From the NCBI GenBank assembly GCA_964019425.1, contig OZ025785.1, positions 1,302,001-1,366,000 of the forward strand: a stretch of DNA of 64,000 nt, given 5' to 3'. The notes under the pieces were generated by a model that saw only the letters and a program-made list of their open reading frames with translations, had not been told where the DNA came from and made no database searches. The DNA is from Flectonema sp. DT1601. Lineage: Eukaryota. A program made the position numbers and the translations under genes. Positions 2,666 through 60,196 of this stretch are shown here, piece by piece; position 1 is the first letter of the stretch, and each line of letters begins with the position of its first letter.

Positions 2666-3687
2666 ATGGGTGTGGGGGTAACAGTGTACACAACGCAGGT
2701 ATGTATACTTCAGCCAAACACAAATAAATGTATCACAGCGATAACTAAAAACAAAACAAACTAATAAACAGCTCAAAATGGTTAGAAAATCTGCGACTAA
2801 CTGTAGAAAATTATTCAAATTGTTAAACAGTTTGAAGATTGACTACTCAGAAATACCTGTTGACGTGGTATGCATTTATTCTTGTGCATTGTGCTTTTAG
2901 TAGCTTGTCTTGAAAAAAGATTTTCAAACAGGAAACCCGTAAAGAGATTGATGAAAAAAATAATGGATACAAAGAGCTTCCACAAATCTTCGTTGCTGAA
3001 ACATTCATTGGAGGTTATGAAGAAGTAGAGGACTACAACGAAGAGGGTGAGTTGAGACATGTTTTAAGAGAAGCTGGTTATACGGGTGAGATAAATGATG
3101 GGCAACAAGATCGTGCGGGAGGTAAGAAGAAGGAAGCAGCACCACCTCCTCCTGAAGATGATAGTGATGGTGAACCACCAGAAGATGAGGACTCAGATCC
3201 TCCACCTTCTGATGATGATTCAGAACCTCCTCCTCCAGAGAGTGATGAGGATGATGATGAACCATCAGCTGATCCCCCTGCAGAAGATGATGATGAGGCA
3301 GATCCTCCCGCTGAAGATGATGAACAGCCAGAACCAGCAGCTGAAGATGAACCAGCAGCGGAGGAGGAAGAAGCAGCGCCTCCCGCGGAAGAAGAAGACG
3401 CGCCTCCACCAGAAGAAGAAGAAGCAGCGCCTCCCGCGGAAGAGGAAGACGTGCCTCCACCAGAAGAAGAAGAAGCAGCGCCTCCTGTGGAAGAAGAAGA
3501 TGTACCGCCGCCTGAAGAAGATGCAGCTCCACCATCTGAGGATGACGATCCTCCACCTGATGACGATGATGAGCCGCCGCCACCCAGCGACGATGATGAG
3601 CCTCCTCCTCCTGAGGACGATGACGACGAGCCTCCTCCTCCAGATAGCGATGATGACGAGCCGCCTCCTGAAGACGATGACGATTAG
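2666..3687 (+). CDS. Glutaredoxin-like (GRX-like/SH3BGR-type) protein with a long acidic Pro-rich tail; spliced join(2666..2698,2772..2867,2932..3687), 294 aa
   Basis: Removing two GTATG...ACAG introns gives MGVGVTVYTTQLKMVRKSATNCRKLFKLLNSLKIDYSEIPVDVETRKEI...LPQIFVAETFIGGYEEVEDYNEEGELRHVL, a GRX-like signature. It continues in frame into the 3052..3687 P/E/D-rich ORF. Confidence 0.85.
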
Positions 3688-4436: not shown

Positions 4437-4467
<31 letters not shown>

Positions 4468-4478
4468 TCTTTTCAAAA

Positions 4479-7400: not shown

Positions 7401-7606
7401 TTAATGTTAACAGAACTGAAGCATCAGTTGTTGATGCACTAACTGACATGGCGTTACTGAGTAGGACTGAGAGACCGATAATTGATGGAGTCTTAAGAGA
7501 TTCATCATTCGGTAAAATGTCAACAACGTTATGTGTTGTTAGATTGTCTTGTGATGAAGAACTCGGGAAGTTAGCTGAAGCACTTCCTGCGAGGCATTTG
7601 AGTTAA
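4479..7606 (+). CDS. Type II membrane fucosyltransferase-superfamily (GT11/GT23/NodZ-like) protein, paralog 1; join(4479..6829,6909..6975,7052..7606)
   Basis: N-terminal TM helix. The C-terminal domain has GLGDRIGS, VGIHLRSTD, FFVASDD and DMALLSR...SSFG motifs. Two GTATGT...ACAG introns restore the reading frame, and the exon structure (67-nt middle exon) is identical in paralog 2. Confidence 0.8.
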
Positions 7607-10009: not shown

Positions 10010-11888
10010 TCTAAAATGGTATTAACTTATGTGAGGGTAGCGACCTACCCACATCAGATTGATTTTTGTAACCAATTTGCTGTTTTTTTGTTTTGTTTTT
10101 TTTGTGTATTTTAGTATAGTTTGTTTACCACCACTCTCATTGAAAACTACTTTCTCATTCGTTGTTGGAATATTTCTGTGTTTTTTCAAAATTTTATTTC
10201 CCATTTTTTTTTTGAAAAAAAAAATACTTTGATACTCAAAAGAGGGACTTGCTAACTGACTGAACTTACTGATAAATGGGGTAGCCAAAAAAAGGAATCG
10301 AGTAGGTTAAGATTATAGCCTGAAAACTGTCTTATTTTCTCAATACCCCCCCATATACATATAACTACCTGATCTTCTATAATGAGTTACCTTAGTACTC
10401 ACATTAGCATGCATCAACACCAGATGGGACTTAATGTCGACCTAAAGGTAAAAGGTTGGTAGGTGTTGATTTTTGCTTGCGACTGGAAGGAAAATCACAG
10501 GAATGAATGAAGGACACGAGTATCACGTATTGCATTGTTTTTGGTCTCCCTTTTTTCCCTCCTTTTTTTAATTTTTTTTTTTTTTTTTTTTTTTTTACAT
10601 TCTTGTCGGATTTTTTGTTAGCATTTTTGATGCACCTGCCGCCTCTAACGATGGATCCGGACAACCAAATGCGAAAAAAAAAACAAAAAAAAAACGAAAA
10701 CCTGTCGGAAGTGGTGCGATAGAAGGTGCGATGCCACTGAATTGATTTTATGATTCAGAAAATGTGACATTTTAGTTGCGATTATCATTATTATTGTCTA
10801 GAACACTTGCCGCAACCTGTTTGCTGGAGAGAGAACCAAGACGCTATGCCCCGGTATGAATTACATGTGCAAATAGACAGGGTTCTGAAGAGGTCATTAC
10901 GAAACCCCTATTTCCAGAAAACTTCCAACAGGTCTTTTTCATGTTGTTTACTTTTTTCTTTTTGTGCTTCCTCTCACTTCATCACAAGAACATCTTGTGA
11001 ATCCCTTTTTTTTTTCTTTTTCTTTTTTTTTTTTTTTGAGTGGTTTTCAAACCTAAATTTTCAATTTAGACAGAATTCTGATCGCGAAATATTGCTGTTT
11101 ATTTGCTTTTTACTTTAAAAAAATAAATAAATAAATAAATAATAAAAAAAGCAAACATGGGCACCTCTTGTCATATTTTTTCACCGGGCAGTTGTGTTCT
11201 TTTTATTGACAGCAAGGCGAGAGGAATTCAGATTAACCGACGTTGAACTTGATTCATACACTTGCGATATTTGTTTTTCCACGGACACTCATTTTTTTAT
11301 TATTATTTTTTATGGATAGCAGTCGTTTTCATTACCCTTACGTTGGTACTCCATATTTTTTTTTCCCCTTTTCATTCCTTTGATAATTTAAATTATCCTC
11401 AAAAAAAAGGCAAGTCCAAGCAATTAACAATCACCTCCTCTCATTAAAAAAAAGTTTTTGGTTATAAGGCATTAGATAAGTCTGCTTTCTCGCTAGTTAG
11501 TCTGATGCAGCTTTCCCTGACTTCGAAATAAATAAATAAAGAAAAATACACAATAATATTGATTAATACTTTTTTTTTGCTGGAGGTAATTATTTCCGCT
11601 TTCTTAACTTTAATGTAGTGGTGACGGAGAACCAAAAAAAGGATAATAAAAAAAAGAGAAGTAGCTTTCCCGAATGAAAAAAAAAAGAAATCTGATTTCT
11701 AACAAAGAATTACTTTGTCGCTTGTGCGTTGTGTGGATTGTATGTCTTTTGTGAAGTTATTAGCAGATTGTTAATTATGTTTACCAAAGGTTTACACAAA
11801 TACATGAAATAGTTTGATTTCATTGGTGTTAATATGTGTTAATGATGTAATTCTTATTTATTTATATTCGTAGGTCGTTTCTAGAAAC

Positions 11889-14800
11889 ATGAGAGGAAGG
11901 GACAAATCATCATTTGGAGGACACCTTCGCTTCCCATCTCGAGATGACGTTGATGCGATGGTTCCCGTGGATAATTATTTAGAAAAGGAAGAACCATACG
12001 AGGAGTTGGAGACACCAAGTGGTTACTTCACTTGGAATGTGATGGCAGCAGTAGTTGGAATCGGATCTCTCTTACTGGTCCTGTTTACTTATCATGAAGT
12101 GTATGGTGGTAATAGAGTTCAAGCTGGAACAGTCCGCCCCTCCCCCCCATCAACAACCGACACCAAACCTGTTACATCAAAATTCACTTTCCCTCCCCGT
12201 GAACGAATGCCAGTTATGATTCCTGCAGCACAGGCACAGCTCCCTCGACTTCTTGGAGGGGGGGAGCTGGTTGGAACTAATATGCAATTTGTAACTTTTG
12301 ACTTGCAGACCTTCCGCGGAAATCCCTTCGAATTACCTCTCGAAGGTGATAATTCACGTAATGAATTAATTAATGAATTGCAGTCTCATATTTACCCTGA
12401 TTCGGAGGAGAAAAAGATCTCCTCGATGTTCACAGATTCCACATACCAAGAGTTGAAAGAAACCCTAGCAAAGAGTGGCTCACTTGTTGGAAATCTCGAC
12501 AACTACTGGAAATCGATAAGGGAGATGTCTTTCGAGGAATTCGTCATCTCACCGCAAAACCTCGCCCACATTCAAAGATTGGACCGCCAGACGAGCCCCT
12601 TCATTGGAAAGTTTGGACCCCACATGCGACCAACTGCAACAACCTGCTTTGAGCAACTGGAGGTGGAAAACGTACCGAAATGGTTCCAAGAACAGTGGAT
12701 GAAATTTATCTTTCAGGTGGAAGCGACGAGCCCTGTTTCGGGTCGCCAGGGAACGATCTACGGACTGACGAGGGAATCGCAGTGCACTGGAGAGGCGCTG
12801 GTTGCTCTCGCTGTGTACGATACGATGATGATGTCGATCTTATCGGGGAGTGGGAAGGCTGGTCACTACCACGAAGTGAGACAGAAACAATGCGCCTTAC
12901 TGACTGAGGGATCGCAGAAGTCGTTCCTAAATCTACTGGAGGAGGGGAAGCAGAACTTCCGACAGGTGGATGTGATCATCCTCCGCAACATCAACGCGGA
13001 GCTCGCAGAGAAGATCCGAACATCAGAGTTTGGGAGGACGCAGTTCGAACTTAAGGTGCCGCGTTCGTTCAACAAGCTGAGTAACGACAACCCGGCAATC
13101 TTACTGCGGATCGGTAGGTTTCTGGGGGCACAGGAAGTGATCATCGACGCTTTCGAAGATGGCGTTGAGGACTACGGTCGTTCATTTGTTTGTTCAGCGA
13201 CCCGTCTGGACACTTCGCAGACTCTCGTGTTGTTGGCATCCCTGAGTAGCAGGAAAGCACTCGAAGTTGTTCATGATGAAGTTATATTAAAAGAAAGCAG
13301 TAATCGGATGCTACTCGCAGGCATGGCAGCCACCACAGTTCCGACGAACGACGAAGTACTAGACAGGGGGCTAAGAGAAATGTCGCCTCTGCAATCGAAG
13401 AAGAACTCACTTCGGATTTATGACCTTTTTGCGACTACATCGGCTGGTCAGCGAGGCAAGCTCAGTGTCACTGAAAACAAAGAAAAATCTTCAAAGCAGC
13501 ACCACCTATTGGTGTACCAAGATGCCGAGTATAGTGTAAATAGCGACGCTGGCTTAGAAAAATTAGTTAATATTGAGGTGGGTACAGTAAAGTATCCTTT
13601 TATTTATAAACCTGTTGCTGTTTCTTTAGTAAAGAAAGACGTCACCGTGAAACAACGAGCAGCTATGTTGGGTTCAATGCTTCTTTCGATTGTGAAGAGT
13701 AAAGAGACACCGGGACCTACAGCTTTAGTTGAAAAAGTAAAGGAAGAGAAATCAACAGACGTAGTGTCTGTTGTTGAGAATGTTAATAAGACGGTCGGCG
13801 AGCAACAAGCGAGTGTACCACCTCCGGTGATCGCAGAAGTAGTTGTTCCAACTGTTAGTGAGAATGGTTCAATAAAATTACCGCCTACTGATGTCGGTAA
13901 CTTTGTTGGTCTTCCTGAAGGAGACTTATTCCCTTCACACTCGCAGGGTTCTGGCGACATAACTGTGACCGCAGTTTGCGACAATGGCTTAGGTGACAGA
14001 CTGGGAAGTCTTTATTCTGCTATCACACTAGCACATTCATTGAAGGCTCACTTTCACATGATTTGGAATGTTAATAATGAATGCCTTGCAAGATTCTCAG
14101 TTTTATTCTCATTTGACGGGACCAGTAGCGCTATTCATAATAAAAGTCACACTGATAATCTTGAAATGAGAATGAAAGGACAAGAACCTGCCTTTGACGC
14201 CATTATCACACTCAAACACCACTTCTCTACTGGACATCTAGTTGGGAATGCACCAGGTTCTCCAACACCACCATCTGATGGCTCTCAATGGTTGTGTGGC
14301 GAGGCTAGAAAAGTACCACTCAGTCTTGATGGAGACTTAGTTAAGTGGGCTTTGGCTAGAAAAGCGTATGTATTATATTTCGTACTAATCGTTCTTGTGT
14401 CAGTAGCTAATTGAAGGACCACATAATAGGAAAAAAAAAAAACAGACAAAACAAAAGGGTTCATATTCTACACCACATCGATAGAGTAGCCCAGGGAGTC
14501 GATCTGAAACGGGTATGGTTGTTTTGTTTTGTTAATAATTAGAATTATGGATGTTCTGAAGGTGGAGGTTAATGTTACAAAAAAACAGGTTGCGGCTGCA
14601 TTGAAATTTTATAATTTCAGAATCTCGCAGGCTATTGGAGATCGAGTGTCGATGTTCGCAGAGCGTCACAAGATCTCACCTGTAAACACTGTTGGTATTC
14701 ATCTTCGAGGGACTGATGCTCGTATTCCACTCCGTATCAACGATGTTATTACTGATGTTCGCCTTCGTTTTCCAACAAGAACCTTCTTCGTCGCATCTGA

Positions 14801-15146
14801 CGATCCCAAAGCAGAACAGCAGTTTCTCGAAGCCTTCTCAGGCCGTGCTGTTTCAAACACGATGAAGACTCACTTTCCAGGAAAGCTGAATAATGATCAA
14901 CCGTTTCGAATCGCTGGTAAGTTAGGAGCCGGTAGATTTAATGTTAACAGAACTGAAGCATCAGTTGTTGATGCACTAACTGACATGGCGTTACTGAGTA
15001 GGACTGAGAGACCGATAATTGATGGAGTCTTAAGAGATTCATCATTCGGTAAAATGTCAACAACGTTATGTGTTGTTAGATTGTCTTGTGATGAAGTGCT
15101 TGGTCTGCTTGCTGAAGGGATACCAGCTCCTGCCAGGCCGCATTAA
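11889..15146 (+). CDS. Type II membrane fucosyltransferase-superfamily protein, paralog 2; join(11889..14365,14446..14512,14589..15146)
   Basis: Same architecture, motifs (GLGDRLGS, VGIHLRGTD, FFVASDD, SSFG) and intron positions as 4479-7606. Confidence 0.8.
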
Positions 15147-29607: not shown

Positions 29608-32427
<2,820 letters not shown>

Positions 32428-40883: not shown

Positions 40884-41304
40884 ATTTCAATATCTACCAC
40901 ATCACCACCAACACCATTACCGCACAACCACCATCACTGCTGAGGAAAATTCTGTTCTGGGGACAGAGGGGTACACTTTAAGGACGATATGCAGAGAAAT
41001 CTGTTCCTTTTCCCCTTTTCTTACCCTGTGCACTGTTACTTTTGTTGTTTCCCAAGAGAAAAGAGAAAAAAAAAAAAAAAAAAAAAAAAAAGGAAGAGAT
41101 GACATGTTCTTCAGAATGTTTAATTTTCTTCTCAAATCTTCACCGCATGAATTCTGCGTAGTTTTGTTGTCTTAATTTACTAGTGACTTTCAGGTAATAA
41201 AAAGGGATCAGGGGAAACACTAAATAAATTAAACAAAGCATTCAGACATGATGAATTAAAGTCGGTAGATTTATTTCCCAGATTATTTTAAAAAAAAAAA
41301 AAAA

Positions 41305-41874
41305 ATGTCGTTTTACACATTCATTGTCGGTGTCATCTTTTTTATAATTGGGCTACCCATGTTTATTGTCTTCACTCTGAGATGGAGGGACTCTGTAGAT
41401 TTTGAAGAGAATAGTACTTTGACTGATTGCACTGTGGTTAAGGTAAAGACGATCCAAACCTGCACAGATGACAATGGGGCTTACACCGGTACTAGATGGG
41501 GTTATAATGTAGAAGTACCTCTTTGTAATAATAAGAACCTTTACAGAGGTGATGACACCTGTAACGATGCTGCTATTTCACTCGGATCTACTCGTCTTTG
41601 CAGAGTTCACGATGACTGTGAAACTTTTAAGTGGAAACACCAAACTGAAGTTAATAAGAATGTCTCGTTTGTGGGTGCTGGAATCCTGGGGGTGTCGTTT
41701 GTTTTATTCGCTGTTGCGTTTTATTTGTGTTTGAAGAAAAAAAATAGTCATTCAACAACGAGGGTTACTGCTGCTCCAGAAGTAAGCAGTCCGAATGACA
41801 ACAAAGTGATGGACATCCCAAATAATAAAACCAACCCAACTTGTCCTGATGATTATTCTGACTCAGTGGTATGA
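41305..41874 (+). CDS. Two-TM protein with Cys-rich extracellular loop, copy 1
   Basis: 189 aa. TM-RW...C.V...C...WGYNV...C...YRGDD.C...C.VHDDC..FKW.H-TM pattern shared by six neighbouring ORFs. Confidence 0.85.
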   Translation: MSFYTFIVGVIFFIIGLPMFIVFTLRWRDSVDFEENSTLTDCTVVKVKTIQTCTDDNGAYTGTRWGYNVEVPLCNNKNLYRGDDTCNDAAISLGSTRLCRVHDDCETFKWKHQTEVNKNVSFVGAGILGVSFVLFAVAFYLCLKKKNSHSTTRVTAAPEVSSPNDNKVMDIPNNKTNPTCPDDYSDSVV

Positions 41875-42404
41875 AGACATTATTTATATTTATAGTGCGA
41901 TTATTCATAATGATTTTTTCTGAATGAAATTTAAAAAAAAAAAAAAAAAAAAATGGAAAGCAAGAAAATTTTCCCTATCCTTTTTTCCTTTTTCTGTATT
42001 TAAATAAAGGGCATTAAAATTCCTTTATTTTTTCCCCCTTTTAAAAGGGGGTACAACGGATAATATGATTCTAGTAATTATTATTATTATTATTATTATT
42101 ATTTTTTTATTTTTTATTATTATTTTTATTATTATTATGTTTTTTTCTCCCAAAGTTTTCCTTCATCTGTCATCTTGACAAGGATGTGGAAACTAACTTC
42201 AAAAAAAAAAAAAAAAAAAAAAAAAACATTTCTTTTTTTTTATCTCATTTAGTAGCTCTCAAAGAAGAGATCAGGTGCAGTTATATTCCGCCTTGTTTTT
42301 GTAACTTCCTAGGGTAGCGACTTGTACTTTCTAAGGGGTTGATACTTGTAAAAAAAAGTGTCCATTAAGATATTTCCTTCACAGTTTTAACTTTTAACAT
42401 AAAG

Positions 42405-43001
42405 ATGCGTCATAGTCGAGCTATTCTTGCATTTTTCGGTTGTGTAATGCTCATAATTGGGTTACCCGTATTTATTGTCTTCACTCTGAGATGGAGAAAC
42501 TCTGCAGATTTTGAATCGAACAGTACCTCGACTGAGTGCCGAGTAGTAAAAAGGAAGACTATTATGACTTGTAAAAGAGAAGATGGTGACTACCTTGGAA
42601 CACAGTGGGGATACAATGTCGAGGTAAGGTTTTGTAATAACAAAATACTTTACAGAGGTGATGATGAGTGCAATTACTCTGCTATTCCAGTTGGAGAGGT
42701 ACGTCCATGCAGAGTCCACGACAACTGTGACAGCTTCAAGTGGAATCACGCAACTGAAAAAAATAAAAACAGCTCATTCGTTGGTGCTGGATTCCTGGGG
42801 GTGTCGTTTGTTTTATTCGCAGTTGCATTTTATTGCCATTTGAGAAAGAAAAAAGTAGTGCCACCAACAACCACAAGGCAAACACCACACCAAACAAGTA
42901 ACCCAGATGATGTCGAATTGGAAATAAAAAGTGATCCCGAAATTATAGAGCCCGAGCAACCCACGAAGGGATGTCCCGATGATATGGACTCTGTAGTTTA
43001 G
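42405..43001 (+). CDS. Two-TM Cys-loop family protein, copy 2
   Basis: 198 aa; same family pattern. Confidence 0.85.
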   Translation: MRHSRAILAFFGCVMLIIGLPVFIVFTLRWRNSADFESNSTSTECRVVKRKTIMTCKREDGDYLGTQWGYNVEVRFCNNKILYRGDDECNYSAIPVGEVRPCRVHDNCDSFKWNHATEKNKNSSFVGAGFLGVSFVLFAVAFYCHLRKKKVVPPTTTRQTPHQTSNPDDVELEIKSDPEIIEPEQPTKGCPDDMDSVV

Positions 43002-43544
43002 GATTGTTTTTGTTTTGTAGTAAAGTTATATGAGACTTTGATTCTTTCATGTTTTTCTCTTGCCCTTCTGATCCATTTCTTTTGGGTCGATTTATTTACA
43101 ATAAAGGCGCTCTTCAGCTTTTTTATTCTCCCATATTTATCAAACACGTTTGATGATGTCTTTCTCTTGTTTTCTTTTGTAATATGAAAAGAAACTTTTC
43201 TTTCTTTCTTGTTCGTTGATTAAAATATTTGGGAATAAAAAAAATAAGAAAAGTAGTACTTTCATAAACCCTCGTGGTTGTATGAGTTTTATAATGTTTT
43301 TTTTTCTCCCAAGGTTTTCCTCCTGGTATCAGTATGTAGAAACTAACTAGGAAACTTCAAAAAAAAAAAAAAAAAAAAAAAAAACTTTTTTTATTTTATT
43401 TGGTAGCTCTCAAGATCAAATCAGGTGCAATTATGTTCCACCTTGTTTTTGTATCTTCCTAGAGTTCTTTCTAAGGGGTTGATACTTGTAAAAAAAAGTG
43501 TTAATTAGGACATTTTCTTCACAGTTTTAACTTTTAACATAAAG

Positions 43545-44144
43545 ATGCGTCATAGTCGAGCTATTCTTGTATTTTTTGCATGCGTAATGCTCATAATTGG
43601 GTTACCCGTATTTATTGTCTTCACTCTGAGATGGAGAGACTCTGTAGATTTTGAAGAGAATAGTACCTTGACTGATTGCCGAGTGGTACAAAGAAAGACC
43701 ATAAAGATCTGTGAAAACGAAGATTACACTTATAGAGGAACCACGTGGGGATACAATGTCGAGGTAAGGTTTTGTAATAACAAAATACTTTACAGAGGTG
43801 ATGATGGATGCAATTACTCTGCTATTCCAGTTGGAGAGGTACATCCATGCAGAGTCCACAACAACTGTGACAAGTTTAAGTGGAATCATGAAACTGAAAA
43901 AAATAAAAACGGCTCATTCGTTGGTGCTGGATTCCTGGGGGTATCGTTAGTTTTATTCGCAGTTGCATTTTATTGCCATTTGAGAAAGAAAAAAGTAGTG
44001 CCACCAACAACCATAAGGCAAACACCACACCAAACAAGCAACCCAGATAATGTCGGAGTGAAGGTGGAAGTAAAACGTGATCCCGAAATTATAGAGCCCG
44101 AGCAACCTACGAAGGGATGTCCCGATGATGGCTCCGTAGTTTAG
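43545..44144 (+). CDS. Two-TM Cys-loop family protein, copy 3
   Basis: 199 aa; closely similar to copy 2, including the upstream region. Confidence 0.85.
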   Translation: MRHSRAILVFFACVMLIIGLPVFIVFTLRWRDSVDFEENSTLTDCRVVQRKTIKICENEDYTYRGTTWGYNVEVRFCNNKILYRGDDGCNYSAIPVGEVHPCRVHNNCDKFKWNHETEKNKNGSFVGAGFLGVSLVLFAVAFYCHLRKKKVVPPTTIRQTPHQTSNPDNVGVKVEVKRDPEIIEPEQPTKGCPDDGSVV

Positions 44145-44172
44145 GATTTTTTTTTTTTTTTTTTTTTTTTTT

Positions 44173-45316
44173 GGGAAAAACTATAATTCCACAGAAAAAG
44201 TTTCTGAAACGTCCGATCTCAATACAAAAGTTTCCGAAATGGACAGCTATTTTTTTTATTTTTTATAACTTACTGTTAGTGCATTTCGGGGTCCCCATTG
44301 CCAAGGTCATGGAGCCTCCCGCATAAGGTAAGGGCATCCGACGAGATGAGTGAAATACACCGAACCTGGGTCTCGGCCTGACTGTGCCCCTGGATCCGCA
44401 TAGCTCGGTATAGGGATGGACGAATTTCGTGTAGAGAGACTTCTTCCCCGACTTATCAGCTTATAAACCATGAGTTCAGAGTGTATTAAAATACTAGAGG
44501 TGCATCATAAGCGTCAGATAGGAGACAAGAGAAATCCAACATCATGAATCTTTAGAAGAGTGATACAGTTCGGTATGTGTGCAGGGCCGGGTCACCTACG
44601 CAGAGACAAGTCTCCGCTACACGTCGTACCAACCAAGATGAGGTATCAGAGCGCGAAAACGAAGTATACATGATCAGCGGCCTAGGGCTTGACAAGAATA
44701 GCTGTGGAGTGGCGAAACCATTTAATGTTCTCAAGTCTGAGATCACCTCACTGAGCCACACAGTACTGTCGTTTCGGAGTTTCTGTGAAAGTAGCCCACG
44801 GAACACTTTTCTAAAGATTCAATCAGCCGAACTACTCCGCTACTGACTTTCACTTGATTAGCGAGCTACTAGTATATATTATTATGTCACCTGTTGAAAA
44901 GGGAGTACTAAGAGGTTGATTCAGGCCCTGCACGTATTAGTTGTAATTACGGTACCTGCCTTACCTTACTTTATTTCTTCCCTGGTTGAGAACCAACCCA
45001 TCTCAGCCGTCCCAGTGAACGAAGAAAAACTTTGTTTTCTTACCGAACAGCGAAAAAAAAAAAACACTTTCGGTGAATAGCGAAAGACAAACCTTCTCCG
45101 TTTACTGAGCAGCGAAAATGAAATTATTGGACCCTACCATTGCGAAAAAAAAAAGCTGTTCACTTGCGAAAGGTTTTTTTTGGGTGCAGGCAACTAGGCA
45201 ACTGAGAATATTTTGTAATATGTTTTTTTTTTTTTTCCTTTTGCTGTCCATTCGGAAACTTTTATGTTGAGATCGGATATTTCGGTAACATTTACGTGGA
45301 ATTAGAGGGTTTTCCC
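44173..45316. mobile_element. Non-autonomous TIR DNA transposon (MITE, Mutator-like) of about 1.14 kb
   Basis: Left end gggaaaaactataattccac...tccgatctcaatacaaaagtttccgaaatggacagc. The reverse complement of the right end reads gggaaaaccctctaattccac...tccgatctcaacataaaagtttccgaatggacagc, giving an imperfect TIR of about 75 bp. Poly-T on both sides is compatible with a TSD. No transposase ORF. Confidence 0.8.
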
Positions 45317-46418
45317 TTTTTTTTTTAAAAAAAAATATTTTATCGCTATTGTGAGAGGCTTTTGCTTTCTCCCATTTTTTTCATAATATTTGACGTCCTC
45401 GTCGATAGCACTCATCTTGTGTAGGGTAGGCTTATGTTGTTAGTAAGTTAAAATAAGCAGTTTCGTTTTGTATTTTGTTACGCACAAAACTCGTTGCCTT
45501 GTTTCAGTTATTCTTAAGCAATTATTCTGAGCTTGCTAATCCAAAAAATTAACAATTTTGTGTTGCGTCTGTTTTTAATATGCTGTGTTAAATTATTACT
45601 ATTAAAGTAGTATTTATAATAAAACATGGGAGTAATATTCTCAGTATATAAAAAAAAAAAAAAAAAACTCCAAATATTCAAAAAAAAAAAAAGCGACCGA
45701 AATCCTCCATTGGTGTACTCCATGTTTTCTTTTTTTTTTTTAAACCTCCTAGTCCCACAATAATATCAACACATACACACAGTTACCGTAGGTATGGATA
45801 TGCTTGATTAGACTGAGCATCAGCATCTCTCAGATTTTACCTGCCTTTCTAGTGATCACCTTTGACATGTTGGTAGCAGAGCTCACCATCTCACTAATAC
45901 TAAGCAACTCCTCCCTTTGATACTTCTGAGAAGTTCTTTGTTCATCTGCGGGAAGCTGCAGCATTCTTTTACTTATCTCTATTTTCTTTTTGTTCTCACT
46001 TTTTCTGTACTAAAATTAATGATACCAACTAACTATCGGTATTTCCACAGTCGGGAAAGATTTTTTAACTTTAGTCCGAAAACCAACCATTATTTGTTTG
46101 TTGTCCTACGGACTTTTGCATTTGATTGAAATCTTGTTTATTTTCTTTAATAAACTGATAACAATTAACGACACCTATCAGTCTATTCCACACGTGTATT
46201 ATGGAACAGCAGAACAATTGTGTTTTTTTATAACTTTTTCTTTAGTGCACTTTTTTTAATAATAAACTCGTATTCTATCTATAACGGTTTCTCACCGCAT
46301 TGTCTCCCCTTACTTTCTTCGCTGAAGATGGCTGGGTAGAGTAGCAACTAACTAGTACTTTCTAAGGGGTTGATACTTGTAAAAAAAAAATTGTTAATTT
46401 CGCAGTTTCAACACAAAG

Positions 46419-47006
46419 ATGGGAAAGATATCACTTAAAAGTCTTGATATATTTTTTAATTGCTCATTGTTCATAATTGGGTCATATGTATTTATTGTCT
46501 TCACTCTGAGATGGAGAAACTCTGCAGATTTTGAATCGAACAGTACCTCGACTGAGTGCCGAGTAGTAGAAAGGAACCAAATAATGGCCTGTGGACGACG
46601 AAAATACGGAAGAGGGTACAAATACGGTGCCGTAGTAAAATATTGTAATAACAAAATACTTTACAGAAGTGATAATGAGTGCAGTCGTCGTATTCCAGTT
46701 GGAGAGGTACGTCCATGCAGAGTCCACAACGACTGTGACAAGTTCAAGTGGAATAACGACAATACAATAAACATAACCGCCACGTTTGTTGGTGTTGGAT
46801 TACTGGTATTGTCTGTTTTATTTGCGATCACAATTTATCGCTGTTCGAGAAAGACAAAAGTAGTGCCATCAACAACCACAAGGCAAACACCACACCAAAC
46901 AAGTAACCCAGATGATGTCGAATTGGAAATAAAAAGTGATCCCGAAATTATAGAGCCCGAGCAACCCACGAAGGGATGTCCCGATGATATGGACTCTGTA
47001 GTTTAG
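46419..47006 (+). CDS. Two-TM Cys-loop family protein, copy 4
   Basis: 195 aa; C-terminus and 3' flank nearly identical to copy 2. Confidence 0.85.
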   Translation: MGKISLKSLDIFFNCSLFIIGSYVFIVFTLRWRNSADFESNSTSTECRVVERNQIMACGRRKYGRGYKYGAVVKYCNNKILYRSDNECSRRIPVGEVRPCRVHNDCDKFKWNNDNTINITATFVGVGLLVLSVLFAITIYRCSRKTKVVPSTTTRQTPHQTSNPDDVELEIKSDPEIIEPEQPTKGCPDDMDSVV

Positions 47007-47618
47007 GATTGTTTTTGTTTTGTAGTAAAGTTATATGAGACTTTGCTTCTTTCATGTTTTTCTCTTGCCCTTCTGATCCATTTCTTTTGGGTCGATTTAT
47101 TTACGATAGAGGCGCTCTTCAGCTTTTTTATTCTCCCATATTTATCAAACACGTTTGATGATGTCTTTCTCTTATTATTTTTGTAATATGAAAATAAAAT
47201 TTATTTTCTCTCTTGTTCGTTGATTGAAATATTTAAGTAGTATAAGATAACAACATATTCCGTCGTCTAAGATGTTACTGGTGACTATTAATACTAAATA
47301 TCGGTTCTTACGTTAAGGACCACTTTTGAAACTGATTTACAAGAAATTTAAAACAAAGTCCCCAGAACTTAACTAGTGTAATATTTCACTGTTTTTATTT
47401 TCTCAAATGCATCTTAATTATCTCATATACTAACTATTAATAATCCAAGTCCACCTTGCTCGCTGACGTCTTCAGAGGTTGATTGGCTGCAGGAAAAACT
47501 CATGCCTGAAAACTTCTATTTTAGTCAAAAAGCGTCCGAGTTTTCTATACACCCATCTTTTTTGTGAACATAGTATTTGGTTTCCTTCCAGGAAAAAAAA
47601 AAAAAATAAAAAAAGAAA

Positions 47619-48209
47619 ATGTTGTTTTGCGGCTCGGCATTTATGTGTTCCACCAGCGTGATCTTTTTCATAATTGGGTTACCCGTATTTATTGTCTTCA
47701 CTCTGAGATGGAGAGACTCTGTAGATTTTGAAGAGAATAGTACCTTGACTGGTTGCACTGTGGTGGGTATTAAGACGGTTAGGAAATGTATAGGTAAAGG
47801 GGGAAGCACTACCGGATATGAATGGGCGTATAATGTTCATGTTGCTTTATGTGATAATAAAATTCTCTACAGAGCTGATGATAATTGCAATGGGGAGGCA
47901 CTTCAAAATGGAACGACCCACTCTTGCAAAGTCCACAACGACTGTGACAGCTTCAAGTGGAATCACGACACAGAAGCGAATAAAAACAGCTCATTTATTG
48001 GTGCTGGGTTTTTAGCAGCGTCGTTCCTTGTTGCTGTTGGTGCTCTAATAATTGCTGTAAGAGATAGGGATATTTGTTTTTCAGCACTACCAGTGGCGCG
48101 AACTAACGTCAAAAAGATTAAACGACGACGGATCAAAAAGACCAAAGACACAGCTACGGAAAACAATACCATCACAAAAATGGATCCGGAGCCACTTGAA
48201 TGTGTCTGA
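47619..48209 (+). CDS. Two-TM Cys-loop family protein, copy 5
   Basis: 196 aa; family pattern with a distinct C-terminal tail. Confidence 0.85.
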   Translation: MLFCGSAFMCSTSVIFFIIGLPVFIVFTLRWRDSVDFEENSTLTGCTVVGIKTVRKCIGKGGSTTGYEWAYNVHVALCDNKILYRADDNCNGEALQNGTTHSCKVHNDCDSFKWNHDTEANKNSSFIGAGFLAASFLVAVGALIIAVRDRDICFSALPVARTNVKKIKRRRIKKTKDTATENNTITKMDPEPLECV

Positions 48210-48922
48210 GGTGGTAGACGCGTGTATTCTTTACTCTTTGTTATGTCTGTATTAACTAAGTCACTTTGTACTGCTTCTCTTAAAAGTCTTCGACTTGTTT
48301 TCCCATTGGTTCTGTCATCAATTTTTATTATTGACGTGTTTTATTCATTTTTATTCATTAAATCAAAAAAAAAAAAAAAAAAAAAAACGATTGCTATGCT
48401 ATTTCATTTTTTTGGTATTTGCATGGCTTTTTTTTTTTTTTTTTTTCACGGACGAAATCGGAGAAGCTATTCAGATTTAAAAAACCGTTATTTATTAAGT
48501 ATCCAAACGATCTCTTACACTGCCTGCTTCGTGCATGTGGTCGGTCCAGGTGTCGCGTTCTCCTGTTCAATTCAGGTCTCTTCTAGTCTCACCCATTATG
48601 GTTCCGGATAACTGGGACCCGACTTCGATTATCTATCTCCCCATGCTCCAGTAGTTATTACTGTCTGGGATCAACATATTAAGGCTTTTCTGAATGGTTT
48701 CTTTTTTTTTCGTTGCTAATAAGCAGCATCGACGATAACACCCTAACTTAGTTATCGTACTTTTTTTTTCTTTTAAATTTATGTATTAGTCAAATTAAAT
48801 CATTATGATGTACTATTCTTACAGGAAACACTATCTTAGAGGAGGGGTTTATCGCTTTCATTTTCTGGCCTATTCAGCATGGTACTTCTTTTTATTCTTT
48901 TACAGTTTTATTCTTAATAAAA

Positions 48923-49432
48923 ATGAATACTGTTGCCCCACATTTAACGGCAACAGCTAGTCTATTGATATGCTTGGTTGGTTCTCCTGTAACTGTTGTG
49001 TTCTATGTAAGGTGGGATGCGTCTAAGGAGTACGAGAGAAATAGTTTCATAGCTGACTGTATTGTTCTCAGATCGGAATCAGCTGAAAAGTGTCGCGGTA
49101 AGAGCGGAAACCACGTTGGAAACAGGTGGGGTTATAATGTTGTGATCCCTCTGTGTGGGAATGACACAATTTTATACAAATCAGACGATACTTGTAACCG
49201 CAATCCGATTCCTATAAATACAACTAAACAGTGCTGGGTAGAGAATGATTGTAGTCAGTTCAAATGGTCTCACAGTACAACTTACAATGTACGTGGGTTC
49301 ATTGCTGGACTTGTAGTCCTTTTTGTCTCTTTCGTGATGTTCTTGATTGGTGGATGTCTCTTCGTAAAGTCCTTAAAAGAAGAACGTTCACAGTTGGCTC
49401 GTCCTGTTACCTTTGAAATGGGAATGGTTTAG
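48923..49432 (+). CDS. Two-TM Cys-loop family protein, copy 6 (most divergent)
   Basis: 169 aa; retains RW, six Cys, WGYNV, DD.C and FKW.H. Confidence 0.8.
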   Translation: MNTVAPHLTATASLLICLVGSPVTVVFYVRWDASKEYERNSFIADCIVLRSESAEKCRGKSGNHVGNRWGYNVVIPLCGNDTILYKSDDTCNRNPIPINTTKQCWVENDCSQFKWSHSTTYNVRGFIAGLVVLFVSFVMFLIGGCLFVKSLKEERSQLARPVTFEMGMV

Positions 49433-53929: not shown

Positions 53930-54243
53930 ACAGCTGGTTTTAAACAAGGTTAAAAAAAAAATTTAAAAAAAAAAAAAAAAGAAAATTTAGAAAAAAGTGA
54001 GTGACTCTCTCATCGCAAAGTGAAATGGTCTTCCGTTTTCGCTTTGCATTTCAGCTGTTAGTAACTGAAGAGAAAAAAGAATTATTTCCAAAGTAAAACA
54101 ATGAGCGTCAACCATGTGCGTTAGTAATGAAAATACTTGTTACTTCATCGTTTACAATAAGGTCTGAGGATTTGGAAGGTTCGTTCAAAAGAAAAAAATC
54201 AAATCAAAGTCATTCACTGTCCCTCTCCAGATTAACAAATAAA

Positions 54244-57200
54244 ATGGCAGGAGCCGGTGGGTTGGCTAACCTGTACGGCACTGAGAAGGATAGAGTAAAC
54301 TGTCCTTTTTACTTTAAAACTGGTGCCTGCAGACACGGTGACAAATGTACAAGATTACACAACAAACCAGTAACAAGTCAGACTCTTATGCTTCCACATA
54401 TGTACCTCAACCCGATCGCTGCTCCAGTAGTTAACGCTCAGGGAATGTATGTATTCGATCTCTTTTTTTTTTTGTTTCCCGTACTCGTATTTGGACTTTT
54501 GTTACTTAGGCAGGTTTATCAATTCCGTGATGATAAAAACTAATAATTTGGCAATTTGCGTGTGAACTTCTTGTTTTGATCAGAATAATTAGAAGACGAG
54601 ACTGACATACTTCACTCTTTTTCTCTCACTCGTTGTTGTTGTTGTTGTTATTGCATTCCCCTTCTTCATCTTAATATCTCGTGATGACAATGACACATTA
54701 GTGTAGTGCGCATCTGACCGTTGGAATTCTATTCCTCGGGATGGGAATACAACTGACTCGCTCTTGCTGACAATACTGCTGCTTCTGTTCCTGTTCGATT
54801 CCATGATGACAAAAACTAATAATTTGGCAATTTGCGTGTGAACTTCTTGTTTTGATCAGAATAATTAGAAGACGAGACTGACACACTTCTCTCTTTTCCT
54901 CTCACTCTTTGTTGTAGCTGTTGTTGCATTCCCCTTCTGCATCTTAATATCTCGTGATGACAATGACACATTAGTGTAGTGCGCATCTGACCGTTGGAAT
55001 TCTATTCCTCGGGATGGGAATACAACTGACTCGCTCTTGCTGACAATACTGCTGCTTCTGTTCCTGTTCGATTCCGTGATGACAGAAACTAATAATTTGG
55101 CAATTTGCGTGTGAACTTCTTGTTTTGATCAGAATAATTAGAAGACGAGACTGACATACTTCACTCTTTTTCTCTCACTCGTTGTTGTTGTTGTTGTTGC
55201 TGTTGTTGCATTCCCCTTCTTCATCTTAATATCTCGTGATGACAATGACACATTAGTGTAGTGCGCATCTGACCGTTGGAATTCTATTCCTCGGGATGGG
55301 AATACAACTGACTCGCTCTTGCTGACAATACTGCTGCTTCTGTTCCTGTTCGATTCCATGATGACAAAAACTAATAATTTGGCAATTTGCGTGTGAACTT
55401 CTTGTTTTGATCAGAATAATTAGAAGACGAGACTGACATACTTCACTCTTTTTCTCTCACTCGTTGTTGTTGTTGTTGTTATTGCATTCCCCTTCTTCAT
55501 CTTAATATCTCGTGATGACAATGACACATTAGTGTAGTGCGCATCTGACCGTTGGAATTCTATTCCTCGGGATGGGAATACAACTGACTCGCTCTTGCTG
55601 ACAATACCGCTGCATCTGTTCCTGTTCGATTCCGTGATGACAAAAACTAATAATTTGGCAATTTGCGTGTGAACTTCTTGTTTTGATCAGAATAATTAGA
55701 AGACGAGACTGACACACTTCCATCTTTTCCTCTCACTCTTTGTTGTTGCTGTTGCATTCCCCTTCTTCATCTTAATATCTCGTGATGACAATGACACATT
55801 AGTGTAGTGCGCATCTGACCGTTGGAATTCTATTCCTCGGGATGGGAATACAACTGACTCGCTCTTGCTGACAATACTGCTGCTTCTGTTCCTGTTCGAT
55901 TCCATGATGACAAAAACTAATAATTTGGCAATTTGCGTGTGAACTTCTTGTTTTGATCAGAATAATTAGAAGACGAGACTGACATACTTCCCTCTTTTCC
56001 TCTCACTCTTTGTTGTAGCTGTTGTTGCATTCCCCTTCTTCATCTTAATATCTCGTGATGACAATGACACATTAGTGTAGTGCGCATCTGACCGTTGGAA
56101 TTCTATTCCTCGGGATGGGAATACAACTGACTCGCTCTTGCTGACCATACTGCTGCTTCTGTTCCTGTTCGATTCCATGATGACAAAAACTAATAATTTG
56201 GCAATTTGCGTGTGAACTTCTTGTTTTGATCAGAATAATTAGAAGACGAGACTGACATACTTCCCTCTTTTCCTCTCACTCTTTGTTGTAGCTGTTGTTG
56301 CATTCCCCTTCTTCATCTTAATATCTCGTGATGACAATGACACATTAGTGTAGTGCGCATCTGACCGTTGGAATTCTATTCCTCGGGATGGGAATACAAC
56401 TGACTCGCTCTTGCTGACCATACTGCTGCTTCTGTTCCTGTTCGATTCCATGATGACAAAAACTAATAATTTGGCAATTTGCGTGTGAACTTCTTGTTTT
56501 GATCAGAATAATTAGAAGACGAGACTGACACACTTCCATCTTTTCCTCTCACTCTTTGTTGTTGCTGTTGCATTCCCCTTCTTCATCTTAATATCTCGTG
56601 ATGACAATGACACATTAGTGTAGTGCGCATCTGACCGTTGGAATTCTATTCCTCGGGATGGGAATACAACTGACTCGCTCTTGCTGACAATACTGCTGCT
56701 TCTGTTCCTGTTCGATTCCATGATGACAAAAACTAATAATTTGGCAATTTGCGTGTGAACTTCTTGTTTTGATCAGAATAATTAGAAGACGAGACTGACA
56801 TACTTCCCTCTTTTCCTCTCACTCTTTGTTGTAGCTGTTGTTGCATTCCCCTTCTTCATCTTAATATCTCGTGATGACAATGACACATTAGTGTAGTGCG
56901 CATCTGACCGTTGGAATTCTATTCCTCGGGATGGGAATACAACTGACTCGCTCTTGCTGACCATACTGCTGCTTCTGTTCCTGTTCGATTCCATGATGAC
57001 AAAAACTAATAATTTGGCAATTTGCGTGTGAACTTCTTGTTTTGATCAGAATAATTAGAAGACGAGACTGACATACTTCACTCTTTTTCTCTCACTCGTT
57101 GTTGTTGTTGTTGTTGCTGTTGTTGCATTCCCCTTCTTCATCTTAATATCTCGTGATGACAATGACACATTAGTGTAGTGCGCATCTGACCGTTGGAATT

Positions 57201-60196
57201 CTATTCCTCGGGATGGGAATACAACTGACTCGCTCTTGCTGACAATACTGCTGCTTCTGTTCCTGTTCGATTCCATGATGACAAAAACTAATAATTTGGC
57301 AATTTGCGTGTGAACTTCTTGTTTTGATCAGAATAATTAGAAGACGAGACTGACATACTTCACTCTTTTTCTCTCACTCGTTGTTGTTGTTGTTGTTATT
57401 GCATTCCGCTTCTTCATCTTAATATCTCGTGATGACAATGACACATTAGTGTAGTGCGCATCTGACCGTTGGAATTCTATTCCTCGGGATGGGAATACAA
57501 CTGACTCGCTCTTGCTGACAATACCGCTGCATCTGTTCCTGTTCGATTCCGTGATGACAAAAACTAATAATTTGGCAATTTGCGTGTGAACTTCTTGTTT
57601 TGATCAGAATAATTAGAAGACGAGACTGACACACTTCCATCTTTTCCTCTCACTCTTTGTTGTTGCTGTTGCATTCCCCTTCTTCATCTTAATATCTCGT
57701 GATGACAATGACACATTAGTGTAGTGCGCATCTGACCGTTGGAATTCTATTCCTCGGGATGGGAATACAACTGACTCGCTCTTGCTGACAATACTGCTGC
57801 TTCTGTTCCTGTTCGATTCCATGATGACAAAAACTAATAATTTGGCAATTTGCGTGTGAACTTCTTGTTTTGATCAGAATAATTAGAAGACGAGACTGAC
57901 ATACTTCCCTCTTTTCCTCTCACTCTTTGTTGTAGCTGTTGTTGCATTCCCCTTCTTCATCTTAATATCTCGTGATGACAATGACACATTAGTGTAGTGC
58001 GCATCTGACCGTTGGAATTCTATTCCTCGGGATGGGAATACAACTGACTCGCTCTTGCTGACCATACTGCTGCTTCTGTTCCTGTTCGATTCCATGATGA
58101 CAAAAACTAATAATTTGGCAATTTGCGTGTGAACTTCTTGTTTTGATCAGAATAATTAGAAGACGAGACTGACATACTTCACTCTTTTTCTCTCACTCGT
58201 TGTTGTTGTTGTTGTTATTGCATTCCGCTTCTTCATCTTAATATCTCGTGATGACAATGACACATTAGTGTAGTGCGCATCTGACCGTTGGAATTCTATT
58301 CCTCGGGATGGGAATACAACTGACTCGCTCTTGCTGACAATACTGCTGCTTCTGTTCCTGTTCGATTCCATGATGACAAAAACTAATAATTTGGCAATTT
58401 GCGTGTGAACTTCTTGTTTTGATCAGAATAATTAGAAGACGAGACTGACATACTTCCCTCTTTTCCTCTCACTCTTTGTTGTAGCTGTTGTTGCATTCCC
58501 CTTCTTCATCTTAATATCTCGTGATGACAATGACACATTAGTGTAGTGCGCATCTGACCGTTGGAATTCTATTCCTCGGGATGGGAATACAACTGACTCG
58601 CTCTTGCTGACAATACTGCTGCTTCTGTTCCTGTTCGATTCCGTGATGACAAAAACTAATAATTTGGCAATTTGCGTGTGAACTTCTTGTTTTGATCAGA
58701 ATAATTAGAAGACGAGACTGACACACTTCCATCTTTTCCTCTCACTCTTTGTTGTTGCTGTTGCATTCCCCTTCTTCATCTTAATATCTCGTGATGACAA
58801 TGACACATTAGTGTAGTGCGCATCTGACCGTTGGAATTCTATTCCTCGGGATGGGAATACAACTGACTCGCTCTTGCTGACAATACTGCTGCTTCTGTTC
58901 CTGTTCGATTCCATGATGACAAAAACTAATAATTTGGCAATTTGCGTGTGAACTTCTTGTTTTGATCAGAATAATTAGAAGACGAGACTGACATACTTCA
59001 CTCTTTTTCTCTCACTCGTTGTTGTTGTTGTTGTTATTGCATTCCGCTTCTTCATCTTAATATCTCGTGATGACAATGACACATTAGTGTAGTGCGCATC
59101 TGACCGTTGGAATTCTATTCCTCGGGATGGGAATACAACTGACTCGCTCTTGCTGACAATACTGCTGCTTCTGTTCCTGTTCGATTCCATGATGACAAAA
59201 ACTAATAATTTGGCAATTTGCGTGTGAACTTCTTGTTTTGATCAGAATAATTAGAAGACGAGACTGACACACTTCTCTCTTTTCCTCTCACTCTTTGTTG
59301 TAGCTGTTGTTGCATTCCCCTTCTTCATCTTAATATCTCGTGATGACAATGACACATACTCAGAGGGATGATAATCTTATTAATATCTTGCAATGGTCTT
59401 TAGAAAGTTCTTTGATATGAGTAATATTTTGAAACTAATATCTCCTTTGCAAGGTGATCTATTTATAATAAACAACCAACAGCCCTGAAGAGTACGACAA
59501 GCGTTACCTAAGAGATCACTTTGAAGATTTTTACGAAGACACTTTTGAAGAATTGATGAAGGTGTGTATTTAACAAAAAAGTTTTATTTTGTTGTAAAGT
59601 ATTCTGCTAAGATTTACTTAAAGAAAGAGGAAAAAAAATATAAAAAAAACAAACAGCTTGGAGAAATATTAGAGCTGAATATTGTTGACAATGTCTGTGA
59701 GCACTTGTTGGGTAATGTTTACGTAAAATTTGCGACGGAAGAGGATGCTGAAAACGCTCATAAGAATCTTGCTGGAAGATTCTATGCAGGTAGAATGCTT
59801 ATGCCAGAATACGTTCCTGTAACTGACTTCCACGAGTCAAGTTGTAGACAATACGAGGAGAATGAATGTGAAAGAGGAGGATTGTGCAACTTTATGCACT
59901 TGAAGGGTGTTTCTAAGAAATTGCTCAGAGACTTGTTTTCAGAACAAAAAAAACTGTACAAAGACAGACGTAAGGAGAGAAAGAGAAAGGAGAGAGCTGA
60001 AGGTAGAGCACCCTCTGAAGAAGATACCAAAGATAGAGTTGTTCGTCAAGATAACCCAGATGATGATGATGAACCTGTTTTTGGAATGGGACGGCCAGTC
60101 GCAGCAGCTAAACGTGAGCGAGAGACATCTGAAGAGCGTCGTGTCCGTCTTCGTGATGCTTATGAAAAAAAGCACGGTAAGCGTCAATGGGTCTAA
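54244..60196 (+). CDS. U2AF1: Splicing factor U2AF 35-kDa subunit; join(54244..54446,59483..59561,59657..60196)
   Basis: Exon 1 has [32 protein letters not shown] (ZnF1). Exon 2 has (I)[26 protein letters not shown]. Exon 3 has [25 protein letters not shown]...[23 protein letters not shown] junctions join in frame (AT|C = Ile). Confidence 0.95.
54527..54605 (+). ncRNA. Box C/D snoRNA A (first of 18 copies; last at 59189-59267); double guide for the SSU Am (U16/snR87) and LSU Gm (snR75) sites
   Basis: Box C RTGATGA. Guide GGCAATTTGCGT before D' GTGA is complementary to SSU GCGCAAAUUGCC. Guide TAATTAGAAGACGAG-A before box D CTGA is complementary to LSU CUCGUCUUCUAAUUA. Confidence 0.88.
54681..54770 (+). 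ncRNA. Box C/D snoRNA B (first of 17 complete copies; last at 59067-59156; truncated 18th at 59340-59357)
   Basis: Box C GTGATGA. Guide CATTAGTGTAGTGCGC-AT before D' CTGA is complementary to SSU GCGCRCUACACURAUG. Internal hairpin GTTG..TATTCC/GGAATA.CAAC. A second putative guide TGACTCGCTCTTG precedes the terminal CTGA. Confidence 0.8.

Follow-up and report, generated by a model that had tools for sequence, protein, structure and literature searches.

Within a 64,000-nucleotide (nt) stretch of the genome of Flectonema sp. DT1601 (assembly GCA_964019425.1, contig OZ025785.1, positions 1,302,001 to 1,366,000, forward strand; hereafter the window), we found that the first intron of the gene for the splicing factor U2AF35 carries a tandem array of two alternating box C/D elements, A and B, which are likely small nucleolar RNA (snoRNA) genes. 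The reading that we favour, and consider probable, is that these snoRNAs guide three ribose methylations of ribosomal RNA (rRNA) and are released separately from the spliced intron. It starts from the array, its boxes, the reading frame across the intron, the pairing of the guides with proxy rRNA and their matches to trypanosomatid guides, and from these we deduce the later steps of expression and processing.

The exons that flank the array code for the U2AF small subunit, exon 1 contributing a CCCH finger and exon 3 part of an RRM. Intron 1 (54447-59482; positions are those of the window) begins with GTATGT and ends with CAG. When it was excised together with 59562-59656, an 822-nt frame with a single terminal stop was obtained, and its product of 273 amino acids (aa) is identical at 255 of 273 residues (93%) to a 273-aa transcriptome protein of Flectonema neradi (P0024). 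The alignment is ungapped across the exon 1/2 junction, as it is for 6 other diplonemid proteins. Exon 3, used as a query, matched 23 proteins at E<=1e-20; leaving out the protein of the window itself, the top six were from diplonemids, with Flectonema neradi first at 91%. Because the spliced frame is open and P0024 crosses the junction ungapped, the 5036-nt stretch is on this evidence an intron in the U2AF35 gene, as a first-pass annotation of this DNA had proposed, and the gene is that of a Flectonema-like diplonemid. That annotation had also put the other introns here at 64-95 nt. Intron 2 is indeed 95 nt long, whereas the other introns of the window are motif-based candidates of 64-80 nt, predicted from the letters. 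A second F. neradi protein, P0002, is an isoform-derived U2AF35 of 181 aa that begins at the methionine ending exon 2 and lacks an in-frame exon 1. The parts of the host gene are as follows.

54228..54230, + strand: CAG 13 nt 5' of the ATG, where the U2AF35 mRNA likely accepts a spliced leader (15 of the 20 preceding bases pyrimidine)
54244..54446, + strand: U2AF35 coding exon 1, CCCH zinc finger (Pfam PF00642, E 3.8e-9; P0024 alignment)
54447..59482, + strand: intron 1, 5036 nt, GT-AG (frame and P0024 alignment)
59483..59561, + strand: U2AF35 exon 2 (frame and P0024 alignment)
59562..59656, + strand: intron 2, 95 nt, 3' end A-rich (frame, acceptor composition)
59657..60196, + strand: U2AF35 coding exon 3 (Pfam/protein search, P0024 alignment)

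Tandem Repeats Finder (TRF) reported the repeat at 54522-59357, with a period of 273, 17.6 copies and 96% matches. On the sense strand of intron 1 we found 36 RTGATGA boxes, 18 in A, 17 in complete B and 1 in a B stub, and 35 complete box C/D elements, namely 18 A (79 nt from C box to CTGA) and 17 B (76 nt). The A and B bodies cover 2714 of the 5036 nt of the intron; spacer 1 is 69-81 nt long with a variable GTT run, and spacer 2 is 46 nt long. The count of about 35 sense-strand genes with boxes at both ends in the first-pass annotation was thus accurate, and 17 of its 18 two-gene units are complete, but unit 18 lacks a complete B and holds only the 18-nt stub at 59340. Its sizes of about 85 and 95 nt for the two RNAs have to be dropped, since A and B are of nearly equal length from box to box. 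No open reading frame of at least 100 aa was found inside the array, which leaves a coding function unsupported.

54527..59357, + strand: tandem array, 4831 nt, unit of 270-282 nt in the order A, spacer 1, B, spacer 2 (TRF, box positions, unit alignment)
54527..54605, + strand: snoRNA A, copy 1 of 18, with C box, D' GTGA, C'-like TTGATCA and D CTGA
Starts at 54803, 55076, 55358, 55634, 55904, 56177, 56450, 56720 and 56993, + strand: A copies 2-10
Starts at 57275, 57551, 57821, 58094, 58370, 58643, 58913 and 59189, + strand: A copies 11-18
54681..54756, + strand: snoRNA B, copy 1 of 17, with C box, D' CTGA, 3' hairpin and D CTGA
Starts at 54954, 55236, 55512, 55782, 56055, 56328, 56598 and 56871, + strand: B copies 2-9
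Starts at 57153, 57429, 57699, 57972, 58248, 58521, 58791 and 59067, + strand: B copies 10-17
59340..59357, + strand: B stub, 18 nt, closing the array (box positions)

The copies differ little, and mostly outside the RNAs. All 17 B copies (17/17) are identical, and the 18 A copies vary at 3 positions, each in or directly 3' of the C box and none in the guides. When the 17 complete units were aligned, substitutions fell in 3 of 155 body columns versus 12 of 115 ungapped spacer columns (Fisher p=0.005, a generous value, as the variable columns are linked in few haplotypes). All gapped columns (12/12) lay in spacer 1, and spacer 2 by itself had 3 of 46 columns variable. The invariant bodies, with differences mostly in the spacers, that the first-pass annotation had described were therefore upheld. 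Among the 17 complete units there are 11 different sequences, ordered without periodicity. Because exact multi-unit repeats of 772, 665 and 629 nt recur at offsets of 1917, 1101 and 816, we infer that the array grew by unequal crossing-over.

The unit was also seen outside the assembly. In 2 of 2 public sequencing runs, one short contig each (300 and 251 nt) held the head-to-tail unit, cycling back after 273-276 nt. The contig of run X1 has all 7 of its listed substitutions and its one gap in spacer 1, and that of run X2 differs at 4 letters, the positions of which are not listed. Both runs are represented by contigs of unknown kind with small word shares, and one run is possibly related to the source of the assembly. 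No RNA run was listed beside these two. These contigs show that the head-to-tail junction exists in data besides the assembly, and they say nothing on copy number.

Each of the 18 A (18/18) and 17 complete B (17/17) copies has a C box RUGAUGA and a D box CUGA, at a distance within the 60-100 nt expected of a methylation-guide snoRNA. Internal boxes could be read as well: D' is GTGA in A and CTGA in B, and the C'-like boxes TTGATCA (A) and GGGATGG (B) have 5 of 7 matches each. B folds a 3' hairpin. Folding of A, B, the intron tail and the spacers gave z-scores of -1.8 to +1.6, which is nothing special. As proxy rRNA for the guides we used six contigs (L001-L006) of ribosomal DNA (rDNA), eukaryotic contamination in four prokaryotic genome assemblies (Rfam SSU/LSU eukarya), which had been fetched by a pattern for the predicted site in the large-subunit (LSU) rRNA; 3 of the 6 contain the small-subunit (SSU) gene. 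Of the four segments that adjoin a D or D' box, three hold an rRNA complement in the 10-21 nt range, pairing over 12-15 base pairs (bp) with L002, and the segment at the D box of B fails. The three guides, in the coordinates of copy 2, are as follows.

54826..54837, + strand: A D' guide (D' box 54838-54841), predicted target the SSU adenosine equal to Leishmania Am479
54862..54876, + strand: A D guide (D box 54878-54881), predicted target the LSU guanosine LSU3_534 of Leishmania, 552 of Trypanosoma brucei
54971..54984, + strand: B D' guide (D' box 54987-54990), predicted target the SSU guanosine equal to Leishmania 1865 and T. brucei 1931

We found that the A D' guide forms 12 bp (1 G-U) with the SSU of L002, with 14 of 500 shuffles as good, and that its target is A478 in the SSU of L003. 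The A D guide pairs at 15/15 positions by Watson-Crick (WC) pairs in 6 of 6 rDNA loci, all selected for the site, and none of 500 shuffles was as good against L002. The B D' guide forms 14 bp (1 G-U) with the SSU of L002 (4 of 500 shuffles as good). Selection for the site entered into the LSU match but into neither of the SSU matches in L002. When pseudo-guides were slid along the unit (n=273 per unit), the top 20 by pairing all lay at the three box-adjacent guides. L003 backs all three sites, the SSU sites more weakly (scores 11 and 10).

The same guides are found in trypanosomatids. According to supplementary file 11 of PMC13487219, the core of the A D' guide occurs in the same register in LM32Cs1C1, assigned to SSU 479, the A D guide in LM36Cs1C2 and TB10Cs1C4 (LSU3 534/552) and the B D' guide in LM18Cs1C3 and TB10Cs4C4 (SSU 1865/1931), and the file also records methylation, in Leishmania and T. 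brucei, at the equivalents of all three predicted target sites (PMC13487219). Taken as sequence matches, they are support independent of the proxy rDNA. Because the SSU 479 and LSU 534 guides both lie on A, and on two RNAs in trypanosomatids, A is a predicted double guide that unites targets served there by separate RNAs. B is a predicted single guide; that it carries one usable guide only is a point absent from the first-pass annotation. Three broader claims of that annotation are supported: box C/D identity, guides complementary to rRNA, here to proxy rDNA, and a euglenozoan setting.

Below its thresholds Rfam pointed to three families, RF01599 plasmodium_snoR24 (30.1 of 55 bits), RF00358 snoZ101 (18.9 of 44 bits) and RF01185 snR75 (13.6 of 40 bits). 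The first two share guide and register with the A D' guide, and snR75 (E 0.45) with the A D guide. We class them as functional counterparts, and not as family members by the Rfam test. The yeast/human site numbering we take to be Am436/snR87, Gm2288/snR75 and Cm1007.

Some further pairings of A were noted. Seven bases in the 5' part of each A copy (54822-54828) pair with the LSU stretch that abuts the D-guide target on its 5' side, in L002, L003 and L005, as an extra pairing element or by chance, and the A D' guide also forms 11 bp in a valid register with the 5.8S rRNA of L002 at 3468-3478, though not as strongly in L003. The Leishmania Am479 guide is described as single-copy, as impairing growth both when depleted and when overexpressed, and as having a second pairing with H68 (PMC13487219). 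For such an LM32Cs1C1-type H68 pairing, we found in the 5' part of A no match of 12 nt lying within 60 nt of the LSU site, the best being 7 WC, or 6 WC and 4 G-U, and no match of at least 10 WC among the LSU matches listed; the sequence of A there is unlike LM32Cs1C1. A scan of viral contigs for rRNA gave 0 matches. In a metagenome scan for the C box and D' guide of A, all 47 matches (47/47) look like chance, and none came with the D guide or a U2AF35 tblastn match.

On the favoured reading, the array would be transcribed as part of the U2AF35 pre-mRNA, and the intron would be cis-spliced and then cut in its pyrimidine-rich spacers. The pieces would be trimmed to RNAs of about 85 nt under the protection of the C/D core proteins, after which A would methylate one SSU and one LSU site and B one SSU site. 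Spacer 2 and spacer 1 can pair around either RNA, at -15.7 kcal/mol in 6 of 17 junctions, with 0-2 of 300 mononucleotide shuffles as good. The array would have expanded from an A-B pair by unequal crossing-over, with selection preserving boxes and guides; we argue for selection on the bodies because so few of their columns vary compared with those of the spacers and because the X1 changes all fall in spacer 1.

Several observations weigh against this reading. Expression and the RNA ends of A and B are predicted from the DNA sequence, and the spacer pairing is weaker at the remaining junctions (-5.6 to -13.2 kcal/mol). Guide pairing was measured on the rDNA of unassigned contaminant eukaryotes, not on the organism's own; the LSU match is circular for the six loci, which were picked by the LSU-site pattern, and L005 backs the LSU site only. 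The B D' guide is mismatched at position 2 against both L002 and L003, and the segment adjoining the D box of B has neither a target in L002 (235 of 500 shuffles as good) nor a guide match in the trypanosomatid table. A terminal stem is absent from both A and B, and no Rfam family reached its gathering score in the window (best 30.1 versus 55 bits). That last result would also fit a functionless satellite with box motifs by chance, as would the tandem arrays that often adjoin diplonemid genes. However, three box-adjacent guides match, in the same register, rRNA sites with known guides, and variation avoids the bodies, so that A and B are almost certainly not such a satellite.

The remaining counterpoint concerns the assembly. 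No contig of either public run spans the array, reaches its ends or ties it to the exons, an absence that counts neither for nor against the array, and both copy number and intronic placement rest on a single assembly. The snoRNA pair could then be genuine and its copy number or intronic placement an artefact. We consider this very unlikely, as 11 different sequences occur among the 17 complete units, without periodic order, the head-to-tail junction is present in both runs, and the array has unique ends, with a correct donor and a correct acceptor beside them.

The start of the intron would allow another route of release.

54447..54526, + strand: unique 80-nt intron leader, candidate spliced-leader acceptor, with donor GTATGT, a U-rich tract, TAG 54507-54509 and CAG 54511-54513

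As in trypanosomes, a spliced leader could be trans-spliced to an AG (54509 or 54513) before the first A, giving a capped polycistronic pre-snoRNA and competing with cis-splicing of the U2AF35 mRNA. These AGs, absent from the first-pass annotation, are preceded by 13/20 (TAG) and 12/20 (CAG) pyrimidines, and in this they resemble the acceptor at the start of U2AF35 (15) and not the six candidate cis acceptors, which are A-rich with 2-9 pyrimidines per 20 bases. Used as cis acceptors, they would give stops 11 and 17 codons past exon 1. The pre-snoRNAs of T. brucei are described as trans-spliced and polyadenylated (PMC3273796), and such release is plausible here because the mRNAs of the diplonemid Diplonema papillatum, essentially all of them, are reported to carry a spliced leader (PMC10161547). 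The F. neradi protein P0002, too, begins at the end of exon 2. However, AGs within A (13/20) and spacer 1 (17/20) are equally rich in pyrimidines, so the leader site is not special, and P0002, known as a protein only, is compatible with simple retention of an intron or with an incomplete assembly. A U-rich 5' end is, moreover, common among introns. On balance we find trans-splicing at the leader unlikely, and continue to favour release from the cis-spliced intron.

Acceptor composition was seen to differ elsewhere in the window. The candidate cis introns 2699-2771, 6976-7051, 14366-14445 and 59562-59656, together with the end of intron 1 at 59463-59482, have 9-17 A in the last 20 bases and a CTAA 19-50 nt upstream, and the AGs 5' of start codons are, unlike these, mostly pyrimidine-rich. 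This composition may mark how the diplonemid separates cis from trans acceptors.

We next considered why the array is so large. We think it probable that the many copies are tolerated as a by-product of a duplication-prone genome and are not a regulatory device. We regard the genome as duplication-prone because the window itself holds a polyubiquitin gene of 12 units and runs of paralogs.

29685..32420: polyubiquitin gene, 12 units, 99% DNA matches between units
41269..49432: six tandem paralogs of a cysteine-rich protein of about 200 aa with two membrane segments
4449..7606 and 11874..15146: large paralogous genes with long identical internal stretches and differing ends

The sequence of the last pair suggests gene conversion. 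In D. papillatum, dozens of genes are reported to have tandem arrays next to them, some in first introns (PMC10161547). Amplification could instead have been selected, either for a high guide dosage or for feedback in which snoRNP assembly or the U2AF35 level tunes splicing of intron 1. Boxes and guides are intact in 35 of 35 copies, and in every copy of A a CTAAT stands 41 nt 5' of a CAG. Control of host splicing in cis by snoRNAs is known from SNORD86/NOP56 and SNORD2/EIF4A2, according to PMC11028025, and the Am479 guide is reported to be dosage-sensitive in Leishmania (PMC13487219). However, recent homogenisation alone would leave the copies intact, one gene is enough in Leishmania, where overexpression is said to have slowed growth (PMC13487219), and pairing of the unit with the host exons, leader, tail and splice sites stayed within shuffles (33-56 of 60; 16 and 102 of 200). 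The coupling of the array to U2AF35 splicing, possibly with feedback, that had been raised in the first-pass annotation thus gained no support from pairing with host splice sites; the sole hint is the pyrimidine-rich AG before the first copy. We judge selected amplification distinctly unlikely. The intron might also act as a switch, with U2AF35, which reads the AG of the acceptor, picking either cis-splicing to the distal A-rich acceptor, for its own mRNA, or trans-splicing of a spliced leader to the pyrimidine-rich AG that lies ahead of the array. We hold this to be highly improbable; if true, the trans-splicing choice would destroy the U2AF35 mRNA and launch a 35-gene pre-snoRNA, and the switch would couple autoregulation of a splicing factor to the supply of a dosage-sensitive guide of the Am479 type.

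Downstream of the array, the tail of the intron holds a possible third snoRNA, also new relative to the first-pass annotation.

59365..59432, + strand: weak candidate for a third C/D snoRNA, present once, whose boxes (GGGATGA, TAGA and TTGA) are degenerate; adjoins the branch-point motif
59435..59438, + strand: CTAA, putative branch-point-like motif, 44 nt before the acceptor; the spacing in intron 2 is similar

The D' guide of this candidate pairs with C1190 in the SSU of L003 (16 of 300 shuffles as good), and Rfam snoZ161_228 (E 0.19) has the same register; the D guide of the candidate forms 10 WC pairs with the LSU of L003 (65 of 300 shuffles as good). No backing came from L002, L005 or the Leishmania table, and the third snoRNA is only a weak candidate. 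Another reading of the tail, which combines a D box at 59412 with the C box of the B stub (Rfam snoR160, E 0.025), was rejected for want of an anchored target (115-220 of 300 shuffles did as well).

Intronic snoRNA clusters have reportedly been described in Chlamydomonas by Chen et al. in 2008, and clustered genes for modification-guide snoRNAs from Euglena gracilis by Moore and Russell in 2012. The array shares its tandem repeats of polycistronic C/D genes, and the three matched guides, with the clusters of T. brucei and Leishmania, as described in PMC3273796 and PMC13487219. However, the trypanosomatid precursors are trans-spliced and polyadenylated (PMC3273796), whereas the cluster here lies within a cis intron of a protein gene, and the Am479 guide, single-copy in Leishmania according to PMC13487219, has 18 copies here. 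In plants and Ostreococcus tauri, several snoRNAs are reported per host intron, so that polycistronic release is needed as here, and the hosts often act in RNA processing; the clusters described comprise a few distinct snoRNAs (PMC7671301), in contrast to the 17-18 near-identical repeats of one pair in our array. Linked multi-copy guide genes are reported for the euglenozoan Euglena gracilis (PMC2784804), as found here, but lineage and guides differ. Our array can also be likened to mammalian SNORD113/114 and SNORD115/116, described as large local C/D amplifications in tandem by non-allelic recombination, although the mammalian RNAs are orphans, found in repeated introns of hosts that do not code for protein (PMC11028025). 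Here, many rRNA-guide genes share one intron of a protein gene.

With 35 sense-strand snoRNA genes between its GT and AG, where at least two in one spliceosomal intron make an intronic cluster, and with the tandem cassette of a repeated cluster of the trypanosomatid type, the array combines two gene layouts that were known before, on an uncommon scale, and does not amount to a novel type of system. The novelty claimed for the arrangement in the first-pass annotation was accordingly overstated, given the polycistronic intronic clusters reported in plants and Ostreococcus (PMC7671301). Among the matches listed in literature searches, at the level of titles and abstracts, we found no account of diplonemid guide snoRNAs or of snoRNAs in a U2AF35 intron. 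The word 'snoRNA' is absent from the main text and 7 supplementary files of the D. papillatum genome paper (PMC10161547), of which Additional file 1, on introns and structural RNAs, possibly lies outside those files.

As far as these searches reach, snoRNAs that guide rRNA methylation would here be described for the first time in diplonemids. Diplonemids are the sister group of kinetoplastids, and a repeated cluster in the trypanosome style, shown inside a cis intron, may bear on the origin of the kinetoplastid clusters as introns were lost. The array is also a test case for the release of polycistronic snoRNA precursors where one cell uses cis-splicing as well as trans-splicing. Finally, it raises a question of dosage, since the Leishmania counterpart of the SSU guide of A is single-copy and limits growth in either direction, yet 18 copies are present here.

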